Assembly: GCA_051941275.1 (NCBI GenBank)
Contig: JAVEBF010000075.1
Span: 1-33,179, forward strand
Direction: 5' to 3'
Source: Dirinaria sp. TL-2023a
Lineage: Eukaryota
DNA length: 33,179 nucleotides
Numbering within the stretch: position 1 is the first letter of the stretch; every line of letters begins with the position of its first letter. Shown in pieces: positions 23,683-28,676 of the stretch. Under the pieces are notes generated by a model that saw nothing but the letters and a program-made list of their open reading frames with translations, made no database searches and was not told the origin of the DNA. The translations under genes and the position numbers were made by a program.

Positions 23683-24900
23683 TTACAAAGGCTTTCCTTT
23701 TCGCTTACCGTTTTTGTGAGCCGATCCATTCGATTCAAGCTTGGCATCAGCCGCCTCGCTTTCTTTGGGTTGAGGAATATTGATATATTCCTCCTCGCCC
23801 TCCATGAGTTTCTCCTCACCTCCCAGCCGGGCGCCATATATCCTCTCCTTGGCTTTCCTATATCCCCAGACCGGTAATCGGACGAGCACCGTCTGCCTCC
23901 ATGTCGGTCGGGCGATCTCGTCCGGATCGAGTAGAAATTCGCCTAAGTTGCCATCCGCATCTTGCTCCTCCAAATACACGTTGCCCACCGAGTCTACAAT
24001 CAGCACTTTCCCATTCTCGGCCTGAACTCTCTTCTTCGCTCCTTGTGGGCCAATACTCTGCACCTCGGTCTGCTCCAGCGGAGTGCTTGTCCCACTCGGC
24101 TTCGTGCCGCTCTTTCCCTTCTTGCTCTCTTTCTTGTTCTCCTTCTCCTGCATTCTCTTCTGCCGTCTGTTGAGGGTCATGCCTGATGAATCCTCCTGTG
24201 CAGTCGCAGCAGCGGCCGGGGCGGACGCTGCATCAATTCCTGGAATGCCTGGAATGCCCACCTCATCACCCCATGCCGCACGCCTCGCATGCTTTATATA
24301 CCGTTCAACGAACTCCCTTTGCCGCTTCCAGCTCAAGTACAGCGCGGCATAATGTGCTCCGCCTCCACCAAGCACGAATAAACCCAGTAAGACAGACCCA
24401 AGTCCTGGCCGGAAACGAGCGTAATAATACCCAGTGCCTCTCCACTTGGGAAAACCATTCGCAAGAAAGAAATCGTAACGCTCGCGGCCAGGACCTTTGA
24501 GGATATTGGCAATAACCCCTAACCTTGCGAAACGTTCGCTTGCTTTCTTGACGTGGGCCTGGATTTCGCTTTCGGAAGGTGGTTTCGCAACGTGTACGCC
24601 CGGCTTCCGCTTTTTCTGGCCCGATTGGGGTTTGGAAGCTTTTTGAGCACGAGAAGCGATGAATGACTGCTTCGCCTTATCCGGGTGGATCAGCCGTGAT
24701 TTCTTGCGGTAAGATTTGCTTATATCTTCCTGAGATGCCGAGGATCGTACTCCAAGAAAGTCGTAGAAAGTGGTCTCTGGACCTTCGGTGGCGGCTATCT
24801 CGTCGCGCAAGCGAAAGATTTCATGATCCGCAGGCGTCCAAGAGGCTACCAGCGCGACGAGGGCAGTCCAGAGGAAGAGAGTAGTAGAGGAGATTCTCAT
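23683..24900 (-). CDS. ERJ5: ER membrane J-domain (DnaJ) co-chaperone, Erj5-like (405 aa)
   Basis: Signal peptide followed by 'WTPADHEIFRL', a J domain with HPD, 'RYDFFLANGFPKWRGTGYYYARFRPG' and a TM helix. The C-terminal KGKPL fits a KxKxx ER-retrieval motif. Intronless. Confidence 0.85.
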   Translation of the reverse strand: MRISSTTLFLWTALVALVASWTPADHEIFRLRDEIAATEGPETTFYDFLGVRSSASQEDISKSYRKKSRLIHPDKAKQSFIASRAQKASKPQSGQKKRKPGVHVAKPPSESEIQAHVKKASERFARLGVIANILKGPGRERYDFFLANGFPKWRGTGYYYARFRPGLGSVLLGLFVLGGGGAHYAALYLSWKRQREFVERYIKHARRAAWGDEVGIPGIPGIDAASAPAAAATAQEDSSGMTLNRRQKRMQEKENKKESKKGKSGTKPSGTSTPLEQTEVQSIGPQGAKKRVQAENGKVLIVDSVGNVYLEEQDADGNLGEFLLDPDEIARPTWRQTVLVRLPVWGYRKAKERIYGARLGGEEKLMEGEEEYINIPQPKESEAADAKLESNGSAHKNGKRKGKPL

Positions 24901-25704
24901 ACTGATTCTAAAGATATCATTGCCCTTGACTCATGTTTGGGTAGCGATGCTTTACGGAGTAATAATAAGATACTATTATCCGCAACCGATGGCCGGTAGT
25001 GTTGTATTATAGACTATGTACTCCGTAAGGTAGGTAGTAAGTAGTATTGGTGGCCTTTGGTTTAAATTTCTGGTCTGCCTCGGTCGCTCAGTTGCTATTG
25101 GATGCCAAGATGGTAAGTTTAGACGAAGCTTGGCAAAACCTTTCGTGCCGAAAACAAGTTTACTTTTAGGGAGTCAGTACCTACGGTAGTGTCCAGTCGG
25201 TGGTAAGTACGGTAGCTTAAAGTACGTTACCAAAGTACCTACCTTACTGTACCTCGTCCTTCCTTTCCTTTCTACTACAGAACGCTCATTCTGGGCTTGA
25301 CCTCGAAAAGTGGATGGTCTGCCCATCTGTGCCTCGTGCCAGGTCAGCAAATATCTGACCTCTGTGGCTCGGCTCCACCTGAGAAAAGGCCGTTCTCAGC
25401 CACTTAACCTTTGTCATTGTCTAACTATTATTGGGTCACTGCCCCAACAAAATTCCCCATCCGCATCACCTCCTTTATGAGCCAGCCACGACATCAGTAA
25501 AGATCCTGCACAGGCAACCATACCTAGAAATCGAGCCTCAAGCCGATTATAACTTGTTTTCTCGCAGTAACTTTGATATCCCTTTTACATCTGCATTTCC
25601 GTCACTCAATTTACTCCAATCCATCGAGCTACCTGAAGTTCGTACACACAACCAACTCCATTTGGGAACCCAAGTCTAGAGCGATTGTGTTTCTATTAGC
25701 ACAA

Positions 25705-26235
25705 ATGGCACGCATTCAAATTCCTCTGGACGCGTTGACCTCGCGGTTAAATTTGGGATCGAAATTTGAGAGCGTACGTTCTCAGTCAATCAGCACGAGA
25801 TTTGCCAACCTCAAACCCGTTTCCGAATTCCTCGACCTGAAGCGTCTCTCCAAGCCTGCAAATTTTGGGGAGGTACAAAGCAGGGTCAACTACAACCTAG
25901 GTTACTTCTCGAGCAATTACGTGGCAGTGGCTTGCATGCTTGCGATTTACAGCCTGCTGACGAACCTCACACTTCTTTTCGATATTATATTCCTCGGCTT
26001 CGGCCTCTTTGGGATCAAGAAGCTGGACGGCCGTGATCTAGAGCTAGGCTTCACCCGATTGACGACTTCCCAGCTTTACACCGTTTTACTAGTCATCACA
26101 GTCCCTCTGTTCATCTGGGCGTCGCCGATATCTACCGCATTATGGCTGGTTGGAGCTACCGGCGTGACGATCCTTGGCCACGCTTCCTTCATGGACAAAC
26201 CAATTGATACAGCTTTTTCCGAGGAGGCGGTCTAG
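25705..26235 (+). CDS. YIP3: Prenylated Rab acceptor PRA1 family protein Yip3 (Rab-GDI displacement factor), 176 aa
   Basis: MARIQIPLDALTSRLN...LKPVSEFLDLKRLSKPANFGEVQSRVNYNLGYFSSNY, two hydrophobic hairpins, and a C-terminus of GHASFMDKPIDTAFSEEAV. Confidence 0.92.
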   Translation: MARIQIPLDALTSRLNLGSKFESVRSQSISTRFANLKPVSEFLDLKRLSKPANFGEVQSRVNYNLGYFSSNYVAVACMLAIYSLLTNLTLLFDIIFLGFGLFGIKKLDGRDLELGFTRLTTSQLYTVLLVITVPLFIWASPISTALWLVGATGVTILGHASFMDKPIDTAFSEEAV

Positions 26236-26284
26236 GTGGTCGGCCGCGAACTCCATACGATATGCCCCATTGGGGAAGACCATC
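26214..26284 (+). promoter_or_regulatory. -1 programmed ribosomal frameshift signal: slippery heptamer U_UUU_UCC plus downstream pseudoknot
   Basis: TTTTTCC at 26214-26220 is phased X_XXX_ in the YIP3 frame and followed by a 6-nt spacer. Stem 1 is GCGGUC (26227-32)/GGCCGC (26242-47). The loop GGUGGUC (26235-41) can pair with GACCAUC (26278-84). The -1 frame is open to 27464. Confidence 0.85.
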
Positions 26285-27464
26285 AGCGGCTCGGCAGGGA
26301 AGGAGGCGCAAAGGTTGGGACACGTATGCAAGGCAAAAGGAGAATTGGCGTTTTGAAGACATAGATAGTGATACAGATAATAGCGACAGCGTCGGGTTAG
26401 AGGGTTCTTTCGTGAGCGATGAATTGCATTTTACGGGGGCTGATATAGGAGACCGCGGTCGGCATCGGCGTGCTATCACCCATGATTACAGTTCGGACTC
26501 GTCGGTCAATGATCCTGACGAAGAGTCAGAGGCCATGACCCAGTTGGCTTTGCGAGACAAGGAAGATATGCTCGTACAAAAGGCTTTGGAGCGTATACGG
26601 CGCGCACAGATGATGGGAAAATCAAATGTCAAATTATCTCAGCGCGAACTTGATGCACTAGAGCGCAAACAGCAAAGAAATCGATCGAAACGAAAACCTC
26701 CACGGTCGGACTCCAAGCTTGCAGGCAGACGGCGCAGCAGTGGTGCCACAGTTCCAGTACTGAAAGAAGAGAAGTCCCGAAAGAGAATCAAAGGTGTAGC
26801 ATCCGCACACGACGAAGGAAGGTCTTCAAGTCCCGCGTCTCCGCCAGGCATGTTGGTGCCTGGCCATGATGGGCCATCCAATATACCACTTGGCTACTAT
26901 CCGGTGACGACTAGGGCCCAAGGCAGGCATTGGGGACAAGCGTCTCCCAGGTTTTTGAGCCAACAACAGTCCAGCCCACCATTGGCGCAACACTCGAGAA
27001 GCCGAGGCCAGCAGAACCGACAATCACCTAGCAGCACTACGCCTTCACAGCCGACTCCTGTAAGCGGCACGCCATCGCTACATCGAAGTCTCCCTGATGA
27101 TCCGGCTTGGATCCCTCGCCCTCGCTCGGCATCTTCCAACCTACCTTACCCGTTAGATCCCTATCAATACCAACAACACTCCCCTCCGCATCCGCAAGGA
27201 CCGGGCCAATATGTGGCAAACCGGAGAATCGTCTCTGGTCCACCAGATGTTCATTATCCGGATATACAATACATGGGCACTCGCCGAGTAGTGGCCTTAG
27301 CTCAGCCGTCTGCAGCCTCCTCCGAGCCATCACTTTTGCGGCGAGAGTCCTCGTCTCGACGACTCGATCAAGGAACGTACAGTGAAGAGGACAGCGATTC
27401 TGAAGGCAATGGCGTCCAGGTCAATGTAGTGCCCTACGAGCGCGGCTATAGCGCAAATCCGTGA
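26217..27464 (+). CDS. YIP3: Frameshift-accessed C-terminal extension of Yip3 (415 aa in the -1 frame; fusion about 586 aa)
   Basis: The -1 frame reads FRGGGLGGRPRTPYD-MPHWGR... without a stop from the slip site. It includes a helical block 'QLALRDKEDMLVQKALERIRRAQMMGKSNVKLSQRELDALERK' within a Ser/Pro/Arg-rich disordered chain. Confidence 0.8.
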   Translation, partial: FRGGGLGGRPRTPYDMPHWGRPSAARQGRRRKGWDTYARQKENWRFEDIDSDTDNSDSVGLEGSFVSDELHFTGADIGDRGRHRRAITHDYSSDSSVNDPDEESEAMTQLALRDKEDMLVQKALERIRRAQMMGKSNVKLSQRELDALERKQQRNRSKRKPPRSDSKLAGRRRSSGATVPVLKEEKSRKRIKGVASAHDEGRSSSPASPPGMLVPGHDGPSNIPLGYYPVTTRAQGRHWGQASPRFLSQQQSSPPLAQHSRSRGQQNRQSPSSTTPSQPTPVSGTPSLHRSLPDDPAWIPRPRSASSNLPYPLDPYQYQQHSPPHPQGPGQYVANRRIVSGPPDVHYPDIQYMGTRRVVALAQPSAASSEPSLLRRESSSRRLDQGTYSEEDSDSEGNGVQVNVVPYERGYSANP

Positions 27465-27657
27465 TCCGAAACTTTGATGCCCAGGCCTTTGAGGGGCGAG
27501 CGGCAGAGGCTAGTCTTGAAGCTACGGTCTGATGTGGGTATATGACTAGGGCGTGAAAATCTTAGGATGCTAGCAACAGCCTTCCTTTCCGTATCACAGA
27601 AAGCATCATACATGCTGTGGATCCGCTCGATCAGTCGTCAAGTGCTGTCTGCATGTC

Positions 27658-28676
27658 CTAAACAAGCAGTATCTCTCTAATTTTCGCTTGCACTTGCTCA
27701 TCGACACCAACCTTATCTCTTAGATATTGTTTCACACCTCCGTGTTTGCTATCTAGCTCAAGGACAACAGCATCGACGAACCCTTCTGGACAGTCCGCAA
27801 ATTCCCTTCCCATCCCAAGCTTTGTAATTTCTTGAATCCTGTCATCCATTTCTGGCTCCAACTCCCTCCTACTGGTCATATAGTCCCGCGCTATAGCGTG
27901 GACGGGCACTTCGAGTAGCAATAGAAGCAATACGATCGCAAGTCCGGTCCTGTCCTTCCCCTGCGTGCAATGAACCACGATCGGGTATTGATGCTTGCCA
28001 GCAAGCAAGTGGAATACTTCCTGGATCTCGGCAGTGCTATATGCTAAAGTGTCCAGCGCTAAACCGATCAAGCCGCGCGATGCCATGACTTCAGCACCGA
28101 GAATTGATATGGCTTGCAGGCGGTAACCGAGAGCCATCAGAGAGAGCAGCTTAAACAGACTGCGCCACGAGAGCCGCCAGAGAAGGGCGCGTTCCATGGC
28201 GGTGCCGGTCAGCGAGACATAGTGATATGTTAGAGCCGGGATCTCAATCGAAACGGCGGATTTATGCTTCTCGATTTTCTGTACATGTTCCGTTCTATCT
28301 TACAGAGATAAGTAGGCCATCCAAGGGTTTATGAGCATAAGCAAGAAAGGGAGAGCGGACTTTGAACGTAGATCAATGATGCTTCGAATCTGCTTGTCAC
28401 TAACCAGAGACTCTCTGTCTTCACTGCTTGCCTCATCAGGCTTTTGCTGCGGTCAGTCTTGGAGCGGCAGCCAAAATCGACCGACTTACTCTGGCACTTC
28501 TGAACAACCTCCCTTCGCGCAAAACGCTGTAGCTAGTGAGCAGACTGAGAACGGTCTACCATGCTTTCTACTGACACATCACTCTGTAGACGATTCACTG
28601 TCTCACCGACATCACGGAAGTTCAGGATGCTTTTGAAAGGGCTGGAAGGAACTTCTTGGAGCTCTGCCGTCGCCAT
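27658..28676 (-). CDS. Protein tyrosine/serine phosphatase, PtpB/IphP-like (Y_phosphatase3) family, 284 aa
   Basis: Exons 28676-28576, 28526-28490, 28440-28361 and 28294-27658 give 'ILNFRDVG', 'GRLFRSARPDEAS', 'IRSIIDLRSKTE', the P-loop 'VHCTQGKDRTG' and 'IARDYMTS'. Confidence 0.88.

Follow-up and report, generated by a model that had tools for sequence, protein, structure and literature searches.

The window analysed here, a stretch of 33,179 nucleotides from Dirinaria sp. TL-2023a, carries a YIP3/PRA1 gene (ORF1) overlapped by a long second reading frame (ORF2), and the question it raises is whether these are two genes or a single gene read in two frames. ORF1 matches Pfam PF03208 (PRA1) over residues 32-172 (E 1.1e-38; score 132 bits, cut-off 30.1) and is 64-97% identical to ORF1 of the related loci. 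ORF2 lies in the -1 frame, is bounded upstream by a TGA at 26205-26207 and shares 25 nt with ORF1 ahead of the ORF1 stop. Its first in-frame ATG, at 26262, follows that stop by 26 nt and gives a 400-aa ORF (P0003). Re-reading of the sequence returned the same positions for ORF1, ORF2, the ATG, the stop and the heptamer as the initial annotation, which had described a 400-codon ORF in the -1 frame 26 nt after the YIP3 stop; this frame is open back to 26208. The features are collected in Table 1.

By simple arithmetic, the chance of 418 open codons is (61/64)^418, or about 2e-9. Judged from the sequence, the arrangement of ORF1 and a -1 ORF2 is beyond chance, since the 418-codon open frame is accompanied by 249 ORF2 homologues (E ≤ 0.001) and recurs in 55 of 55 informative loci. 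The homologues were found in lichen and other metagenome fungi, and those that are named all belong to lichen-forming ascomycetes.

We consider it very likely that the locus is a PaYIP3-type programmed -1 frameshift, in which one gene and one mRNA give two proteins. Most ribosomes would make the 176-aa PRA1/YIP3 protein and terminate at the UAG at 26233, and a minority would shift back one base at U_UUU_UCC (26214-26220), prompted by a very stable, GC-based bulged stem 2 nt downstream that is probably part of a pseudoknot. Slipped ribosomes would continue in the -1 frame to 27461, and their product would join YIP3 residues 1-171 to a largely disordered tail. Its length, 171 + 1 + 414 = 586 residues, fits the product of about 586 aa that had been proposed alongside the 176-aa short form.

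Table 1. Positions of the features of the YIP3 locus in the window
Feature	Position	Strand	Remarks
Candidate (probable) 5' leader of YIP3 mRNA	25285..25704	+	From metatranscriptome contig starts
ORF1, YIP3/PRA1 short form	25705..26235	+	176 aa; ATG 25705; stop TAG 26233-26235
ORF2, -1 frame extension	26208..27464	+	Open for 418 codons; after a slip, reading would begin at about 26217-26220; stop TGA 27462-27464
Shift site T_TTT_TCC	26214..26220	+	Zero-frame GCT TTT TCC = Ala170 Phe171 Ser172 (26212-26220)
2-nt spacer	26221..26222	+	GA here, GG in others
Stem 1	26223..26254	+	5' arm 26223-26232; 3' arm 26242-26247 and 26251-26254
Stem 1 loop	26233-26241	+	Includes the ORF1 stop codon
Stem 1 3-nt bulge	26248-26250	+	From the fold
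Small hairpin CCCC-AUU-GGGG within candidate loop 3	26265..26275	+	Seen in the fold
Candidate pseudoknot stem 2, 3' arm GACCAUC	26278..26284	+	Pairs with loop 26235-26241 (GGUGGUC)
Early TGA, then recognisable ancestral C-terminal tail	27462..27503	+	Window ...ANP*SETLMPRPLRGER, same frame

Relation to the published YIP3 frameshift

The YIP3 frameshift event is already known, and the window very probably holds a lichen-fungus copy of it. Malagnac et al. (2013, PMC3777964), working on Podospora anserina, placed U UUU UCC at codon 170 in PaYIP3 and, 2 nt downstream, a stem-loop or pseudoknot with a 3-nt bulge in stem 1. According to that paper, the 3' ORF has no known domain, is restricted to Pezizomycotina and requires manual annotation of its gene models; the long form is made in vivo, as judged by GFP western blot, and the site gave about 1% shifting in a yeast reporter. 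The same source reports that the long form alone failed to complement the deletion mutant and that no phenotype was linked to the frameshift, and its authors suggested, for the extension, tissue-specific instability or a part in regulation. Protein extension by a cellular -1 frameshift of non-retroelement origin is very rare; YIP3, described in PMC3777964 as lacking a retroelement signature, was presented by its authors as the first such case. The event was covered in a 2016 recoding review (PMC5009743), the only work on YIP3 frameshifting after the 2013 paper that our literature search returned. An mBio paper of 2017 (PMC5487733) was rejected as a YIP3 source, the frameshift passages there concerning cpc-1.

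The precedent that the initial annotation had named is real, as far as the text of PMC3777964 describes it, and heptamer, spacer, bulged stem and domain-less -1 ORF are all present in the window; its statement that the event was not wholly new is borne out by that publication and the review. In both systems a 5' PRA1/YIP3 ORF is followed by a domain-less 3' ORF in the -1 frame, with U_UUU_UCC at codons 171-172 in the window and at codon 170 in P. anserina, and in both the spacer is 2 nt long, the stem base is GC-rich and stem 1 has a 3-nt bulge (PMC3777964). Both short forms are close to 19 kDa, and the two long forms also resemble each other in size. In a by-eye comparison, the window matches the published reporter oligo at 39 of its first 43 nt, and the four differing positions comprise a spacer base, one compensatory stem pair and a bulge base. 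Thus the window has C-G at pair 26228/26246, spacer GA and bulge GAA, against U-A, GG and GAG in PaYIP3. The host also differs, being a lichen-forming ascomycete, a group unnamed in the main text of PMC3777964; the window ORF2 is about 13 codons short at its C-terminus, and the window copy is known from sequence alone. By the shared cassette and the synteny with YIP3, the window gene would be the orthologue of the PaYIP3 frameshift gene. Frameshifting in Dirinaria sp. TL-2023a, whether by tandem or by P-site-only slippage, would follow by analogy.

Three other systems offer useful comparisons. YIP3 of Capnodiales and Ophiostomatales is the same gene with the same C-terminal extension, but there the extension lies in the +1 frame (PMC3777964), whereas it is -1 in the window and in the 55 informative loci. 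The ORF1a/1b signal of the coronavirus IBV likewise combines a slip site with a downstream H-type pseudoknot whose stem 1 has a G-C run at its base, a comparison drawn in PMC3777964; in contrast, IBV uses the canonical U_UUA_AAC and a 6-nt spacer, while YIP3 is a cellular gene of low efficiency, and the PaYIP3 structure did not raise the IBV heptamer to IBV levels (PMC3777964). Mammalian PEG10/Edr and Ma3 are also cellular genes whose protein is extended via a -1 shift, and a 3-nt bulge is present in the Edr pseudoknot as well (discussion of PMC3777964), but these genes are retroelement-derived and use canonical heptamers.

Conservation of the arrangement and of the cassette

Related loci from metagenomes numbered 58, of which three are truncated ahead of ORF1 and 55 are informative. 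In every informative locus YIP3 immediately precedes ORF2, which lies in the -1 frame and overlaps it by 22-361 nt, the position of the ORF1 stop is identical, and a 37-nt degenerate cassette pattern occurs exactly once. The kind of event is not a new one; what the window documents is an intact signal in lichen-forming fungi, with nucleotide conservation almost complete over 55 independent loci. These loci come from many assemblies, which, together with the fixed ORF1 stop and the lack of coding-region indels in the RNA contigs of a relative (below), makes it extremely improbable that the frame break arose through misassembly or through recent inactivation by mutation of an originally continuous gene. 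Some decay or error in the window copy is conceivable, because its ORF2 ends at an early TGA, while the close relatives P0004, P0005 and P0006 extend 13-14 residues further and end in ...GR(P/S)WRG(E/D/Q)R.

Constraint at the cassette is seen at synonymous positions of both frames. Among 27 representatives, pairwise identity at third codon positions stays at 0.33-0.57 along most of ORF1, rises to 0.67 at 26185-26214 and reaches 0.95 at 26215-26244. In ORF2, third-base identity at conserved fourfold-degenerate residues averages 0.93 within the cassette (n = 10) against 0.33 outside it (n = 18, maximum 0.58), which is the reduced synonymous variation that had been put forward beforehand as a check. 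Hardly any variation is seen at the synonymous bases 26276, 26279 and 26282. The ORF2 proteins of the compared fungi are only 31-61% identical, yet the cassette hardly changes.

These alignments also bear on whether ORF2 could be translated separately from the AUG at 26262, by reinitiation or from an internal transcript start, to give two proteins and no fusion. The ATG lies close to the ORF1 stop in the window, an ATG is found within 100 nt in 13 of 34 distinct relatives, public gene callers give ORF2 alone at about 400 aa (P0003 and many others), and an internal transcript start is compatible with the assembled contigs. In the other 21 of the 34, however, the first in-frame ORF2 ATG lies 101-545 nt past the ORF1 stop, yet ORF2 similarity begins at the cassette or no more than 11 nt from it, so that entry into ORF2 from ORF1 is required. 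The peptide SFFRGGGLGGRPRTP is, moreover, identical in all eight homologues whose gene models begin upstream of it, and a frozen slip site and stem would serve no purpose in separate translation. Tagging of ORF2 with GFP in P. anserina yielded a band of the size of the fusion (PMC3777964). We therefore regard separate translation as very unlikely, and return to the frameshift.

Slip site and junction residue

T_TTT_TCC occurs six times in the window against 5.66 expected, so the heptamer by itself is uninformative. The alignment of this site that the initial annotation had called for found 31 of 34 distinct sites identical (TTTTTCC), with TTTTTCT in two and TTTTTCA in one, all three differing at the last base only. 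The T at 26214, the third base of the Ala codon, is invariant in 27 of 27 representatives.

U_UUU_UCC is not a canonical X_XXY_YYZ heptamer and does not allow the re-pairing of both tRNAs, with Watson-Crick matches at two of three positions, that defines a canonical viral-type site; as argued in PMC3777964, the A-site tRNA-Ser must tolerate a G-U pair at the middle position. By analogy, the site would act like a viral-type -1 signal without belonging to the canonical class. The junction had been written as ...DTAF-FRGGG. Its flanks stand, but the Phe between them presupposes decoding of the -1 codon UUC, and tandem slippage with the A-site tRNA-Ser would give ...DTAF-S-RGGG instead. The junction residue may thus be Ser rather than Phe.

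RNA structure downstream of the slip site

Stem 1 folds with a minimum free energy of -14.2 kcal/mol, a modest result against shuffled sequences (z-score -1.43), and longer stretches (87, 62 and 65 nt) have no advantage over their shuffles (z 0.16, -0.07 and -0.08), so thermodynamics alone cannot single out the element. A search of 26100-26400 against Rfam returned no family match at E ≤ 1. Support for stem 1 comes from the alignment: all 10 pairs are 100% paired across 34 sequences, one double change replaces G-C by A-U (L025, L031), one pair goes from U-G to U-A (L049), and the difference from the P. anserina oligo at 26228/26246, seen in the by-eye comparison, makes a second compensatory pair. 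Stem 1 is probably part of a pseudoknot.

The constraint on the RNA reaches about 26284, past the fragment tested in 2013, and suggests a larger pseudoknot. Within the constrained region lies the invariant block GGGGAAGACCAYC, whose seven bases 26278-26284 can pair with the stem 1 loop at 26235-26241, enclosing the small hairpin, and we regard this pairing as a candidate stem 2. The distal stem of 7 bp is 97.9% paired, one of its pairs appearing as GC 17 times, GU 14, AU once and otherwise twice, and its duplex, at -10.5 kcal/mol, is more stable than the best pairing available to the proximal segment 26255-26270 (-6.0). A proximal 4-bp candidate stem 2 is 97.1% paired and shows no double change. 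The candidate stems 2 have only one double change between them, from a single sequence. The hairpin at 26265..26275 is 98.5% paired, with a closing C-G or U-G pair, and its support is weak because it, too, shows no double change. Overall, 15 of the 21 tested pairs never vary; covariation is sparse because the cassette itself hardly varies.

It is possible, though we put it forward only tentatively, that the frameshift stimulator extends beyond the 59-nt element assayed in 2013. The published PaYIP3 reporter oligo stops at the position corresponding to 26270 (PMC3777964) and thus lacks the distal arm of stem 2. The conserved downstream RNA block is accordingly absent from the only published reporter, which bears on the low efficiency measured. 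If the stimulator is indeed larger, the missing arm could explain both the roughly 1% efficiency and the failure to stimulate the IBV heptamer to IBV levels. The near-total invariance of the cassette would likewise be compatible with regulation of shifting by a conserved trans-acting factor bound to the structure.

Transcript evidence and introns

RNA evidence consisted of assembled contigs from one lichen metatranscriptome sample, from a relative at about 97% identity; such contigs drop rare isoforms and cannot show transcript ends. They are unbroken, with no joints, from about 25285 to beyond 27900. The contigs start at 25285, 25320 and 25354, and cover is absent at 25001-25284, which gives at most a weak hint at where the transcript starts, as contigs cannot fix the true 5' end. 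All 26 gap letters (indels of 6, 3 and 17 nt) sit in the 5' leader. At the other end, the contigs run on into the convergent downstream gene.

With these data we weighed the possibility that the frames are joined in the RNA, by a small intron, by RNA editing or by polymerase slippage adding a U in the U5 run. A homopolymer does lie at the junction, and five U is a short run for transcriptional slippage; the conserved structure 2 nt downstream suits a ribosomal mechanism. The contigs have neither joint nor indel across 25705-27464. The initial annotation had named an RNA-seq intron joining the frames as evidence against its reading, and none is present in the contigs (about 97% relative, one sample; minor isoforms can escape). 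A scan of the window for introns found 76 GT..AG pairs in the appropriate length class; no donor among them matched more than four of six bases, and those with four had no branch site. Public lichen genomes do contain annotated fusion proteins (for example P0049, P0067, P0071 and P0080, all PF03208), but these connect the frames at different and mutually inconsistent places, as expected of gene-caller workarounds. The P. anserina cDNAs are colinear with the gene, although an edited fraction of 1-5% would escape twelve cDNAs (PMC3777964) or assembled contigs. Joining at the RNA level therefore seems to us to have very little chance of being correct, and the programmed frameshift remains the preferred reading. 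On that reading, public lichen genome annotations mishandle the gene, either calling ORF2 alone or fusing it to ORF1 by inconsistent, invented joins.

The ORF2 tail protein

ORF2 matched no Pfam family at E ≤ 0.1, and its profile matched no solved structure at E ≤ 1. The AlphaFold2 model has a mean pLDDT of 51 and is confident only at the helices of ORF2 residues 106-135 and 145-162, in agreement with the disordered tail and one helical block described in the initial annotation. The tail is rich in Ser, Pro and Arg and is predicted by the model to be largely disordered, with one confident helix-turn-helix block; it may be cytosolic and phosphorylatable. Several short conserved motifs are present in it. 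A search of the ESM Atlas with ORF2 residues 60-180 returned only two clusters, both of low score (0.81) and auto-named 'Prenylated Rab acceptor 1'. Both are probably ORF2 orthologues, and we note them as a lead.

The YIP3 locus and its predicted shift site

The evidence supports the view that the window carries the known -1 frameshift of Pezizomycotina YIP3, here predicted in a lichen-forming fungus, and it is very likely that the locus works in this way. The coordinates in the initial annotation (ORF1, the -1 frame, ATG 26262 and the heptamer) were re-derived from the sequence and all proved correct, which confirms its observation; its frameshift interpretation is supported by a published precedent, a conserved cassette and an ORF2 in the -1 frame at 55 of 55 informative related loci. 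ORF1 residues 32-172 matched PF03208 in a Pfam search (E 1.1e-38), and the earliest ATG of ORF2, the -1-frame extension, lies 26 nt past the ORF1 stop. Six copies of the heptamer were observed in the window against 5.66 expected, and the heptamer alone is uninformative; its position, frame and surroundings carry the weight.

Features of the predicted YIP3 frameshift locus in the window
Feature	Position	Strand	Details
ORF1 (PRA1-family)	ATG 25705 to TAG 26233-26235	+	176 aa
ORF2, -1 frame	open 26208 to TGA 27462-27464	+	418 codons, directly after TGA 26205-26207
T_TTT_TCC heptamer	26214-26220	+	zero-frame GCT TTT TCC = Ala170, Phe171, Ser172
Stem 1, 10 bp	26223-26254	+	begins 2 nt past heptamer; computed fold
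Stem 1 5' arm	26223-26232	+	fold
Stem 1 loop, 9 nt	26233-26241	+	includes UAG stop; fold
Stem 1 3' arm	26242-26247 and 26251-26254	+	fold
Stem 1 bulge GAA	26248-26250	+	fold

The event type is already known and has been published for YIP3 of Pezizomycotina. The Podospora anserina precedent named for this locus in the initial annotation exists, and the signal in the window matches it. Malagnac et al. 2013 (PMC3777964) describe PaYIP3 as a YIP3-like 5' ORF with a 3' ORF in the -1 frame, the latter without known domain and confined to Pezizomycotina, and report 12 cDNAs colinear with the gene over the junction. The sequence proposed for the shift is U UUU UCC at codon 170, followed after 2 nt by a stem-loop or pseudoknot whose stem 1 has a basal G-C stretch and a conserved 3-nt bulge. 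The long form was detected in vivo through a GFP tag, and shifting was approximately 1% in a yeast reporter. Conservation held across all the Pezizomycotina examined there apart from Ascosphaera apis and Arthrobotrys oligospora, and a +1 variant occurs in two clades. The frameshift is restated in a 2016 recoding review (PMC5009743), and our full-text literature search found no later work on YIP3 frameshifting.

The residue at the junction would depend on the mode of slippage. In a tandem slip, the A-site tRNA would already have read UCC and the product would be ...DTAF-S-RGGG; if the P-site tRNA slipped alone, the -1 codon UUC would then be decoded to give ...DTAF-F-RGGG. Classical studies of retroviral sites underlie this distinction. 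The junction DTAF-F-RGGG proposed initially would therefore hold under P-site-only slippage, which the 2013 authors tend to favour (PMC3777964), and not under tandem slippage, which would place Ser there. The long form would have 586 residues under both modes.

Homologous proteins and related loci

ORF2 had 249 homologues at E <= 0.001; among the 120 listed, the closest is 85% identical, and the named hosts are lichen-forming ascomycetes (Heterodermia, Alectoria, Lecanora, Xanthoria, Lepraria and others), which places the window in a lichen fungus. The records are of two types, ORF2 alone (approximately 320-460 aa) and a PRA1-domain fusion (approximately 490-660 aa). In a 24-sequence alignment, the frame-switch points of the fusion records (P0046, P0049, P0055, P0067, P0071 and P0080) differ and are mutually inconsistent, as expected from gene-caller workarounds and not from a real intron. 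The YIP3 gene is systematically mis-modelled in public lichen genome annotations. The -1-frame peptide SFFRGGGLGGRPRTP is identical in all eight models that start upstream of it, several of which lack the Met that the window has.

A scan of metagenome contigs gave 58 related loci, three of which (L023, L044 and L054) start inside ORF2 and are uninformative. In all 55 others, YIP3 lies directly upstream (64-97% identity, tblastn) and ORF2 is in the -1 frame, overlapping ORF1 by 22-361 nt. A 37-nt degenerate pattern of the cassette occurs a single time in each of these loci and is absent from the three truncated ones. Counting the window, there are 34 distinct 105-nt sites, where the heptamer reads TTTTTCC in 31, TTTTTCT in two (L037, L055) and TTTTTCA in one (L042); variation is limited to the last base, for which re-pairing after a -1 slip is unnecessary. 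Because the arrangement recurs in 55 independent loci, an assembly error as the cause of the frame break is excluded.

The ATG at 26262 would allow ORF2 to be initiated independently rather than entered from ORF1, but in 21 of the 34 distinct relatives no in-frame ATG follows the ORF1 stop for 101-545 nt, and ORF2 similarity begins either at the cassette or no more than 11 nt from the stop. Splicing could also join the two frames. A scan for GT..AG pairs of 40-400 nt with a length of 2 mod 3 returned 76, none with a donor matching more than four of the six bases of GTAAGT; the four donors that match 4/6 are without a branch site, and their use would remove more than 100 PRA1 codons.

RNA contigs from four RNA-seq runs of a single lichen metatranscriptome sample were aligned over 24900-27900. 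The contigs are approximately 97% identical to the window and so come from a relative. They are unbroken from 25285, 25320 or 25354 to past 27900, and the frame-joining intron that the initial annotation had named as evidence against a frameshift does not appear, there being zero joints in these contigs from one sample, which drop minor isoforms, do not show transcript ends and run on into the convergent gene further downstream. The 40 listed substitutions all lie outside 26143-26404; 45 further differences are beyond that list.

The contigs also imply a long 5' leader (25285-25704, approximately 350-420 nt), in which no joint was seen and to which the 26 gap letters, three indels of 6, 3 and 17 nt, are confined. 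The P. anserina leader is likewise long and contains an intron.

RNA structure and constraint

Stem 1 folds at -14.2 kcal/mol, and its z-score is modest (-1.43). In the 34-sequence alignment it is paired in 100% of cells, with one pair being A-U instead of G-C in two sequences, another U-A instead of U-G, and no other variation. Covariation is sparse, since 15 of the 21 pairs of the tested structure are invariant. Compared by eye, the first 43 nt of the PaYIP3 reporter oligo (PMC3777964) have four mismatches to the window: 26222 in the spacer (its second base), 26250 in the bulge (its third base) and both partners of stem pair 26228/26246, a compensatory difference (C-G in the window, U-A in P. 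anserina).

For stem 2 of a possible pseudoknot, two candidate pairings were compared. The distal candidate (7 bp, loop 26235-26241 with 26278-26284) is 97.9% paired, one pair being GC in 17 sequences, GU in 14, AU in one and unpaired in two; the proximal candidate (4 bp, 26235-26238 with 26263-26266) is 97.1% paired and lacks any double change. The distal duplex is the stronger, at -10.5 kcal/mol, the best that the loop reaches with the proximal segment 26255-26270 being -6.0. Insertions in candidate loop 3 occur at loci L056 and L058 (3 nt ahead of the GCCCC block, 3 nt within the small hairpin loop). Retention there of stem 1, of the small hairpin's stem and of the GGGGAAGACCAC block is what unpaired inserted positions would predict.

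At ORF1 third positions (27 representatives, ORF1 ungapped), mean pairwise identity is mostly 0.33-0.57, with 0.67 at 26185-26214 and 0.95 at 26215-26244; T 26214 is invariant although it occupies the third position of an Ala codon. For fourfold degenerate ORF2 residues at least 90% conserved (30 representatives), third-base identity averages 0.93 at the 10 sites up to 26285, including 26267, 26276 and 26282, and 0.33 (maximum 0.58) at the 18 sites beyond. Both signs suggested beforehand for YIP3 loci, heptamer conservation and reduced synonymous variation, are present (34 sites; 27 and 30 representatives). The 2013 oligo terminates at the equivalent of 26270 (PMC3777964), so the frozen sites 26276 and 26282 extend the constrained RNA approximately 14 nt beyond it. 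Because the constraint outruns the oligo, the fragment tested in 2013 may, judging from sequence conservation, have missed part of the stimulator. Only how far the conserved RNA element extends may be new.

The ORF2 extension and its C-terminus

ORF2 has no Pfam match, and among solved structures nothing matched at E <= 1. Its AlphaFold2 model (24-row alignment) has a mean pLDDT of 51, and helices 106-135 and 145-162 are the only confident parts (block means 89-95), in agreement with the one helical block anticipated for the tail. Conserved motifs in the alignment include FTGADLG, the helical block ...LALRDKE..ALERIRRAQ..., PLGYY, LPDDP.W.PRPRSASS, GRRIVSGPPD, GVQV.VVPY and a terminal R.RRG.R. 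The tail is predicted to be cytosolic, given how PRA1 proteins are usually oriented, and RPRSAS may resemble a basophilic-kinase or 14-3-3 site.

The window's ORF2 ends at the TGA 27462-27464 (segment 27462-27503) where three close relatives (P0004, P0005 and P0006, 73-86% identical) read sense and have 13-14 more residues with the conserved end ...GR(P/S)WRG(E/D/Q)R. Beyond the TGA the window's sequence still continues in frame as ...SETLMPRPLRGER, and the ancestral stop is now a Gln codon. The early TGA could be a recent truncation, a site of stop-codon readthrough or an assembly error.

A convergent ORF at 27658-28299 (- strand) has an HC..GKDRTG (CX5R) motif of the kind usual in tyrosine/dual-specificity phosphatase-like proteins. 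RNA contigs from the YIP3 locus extend into this ORF, so the 3' ends of both transcripts may overlap.
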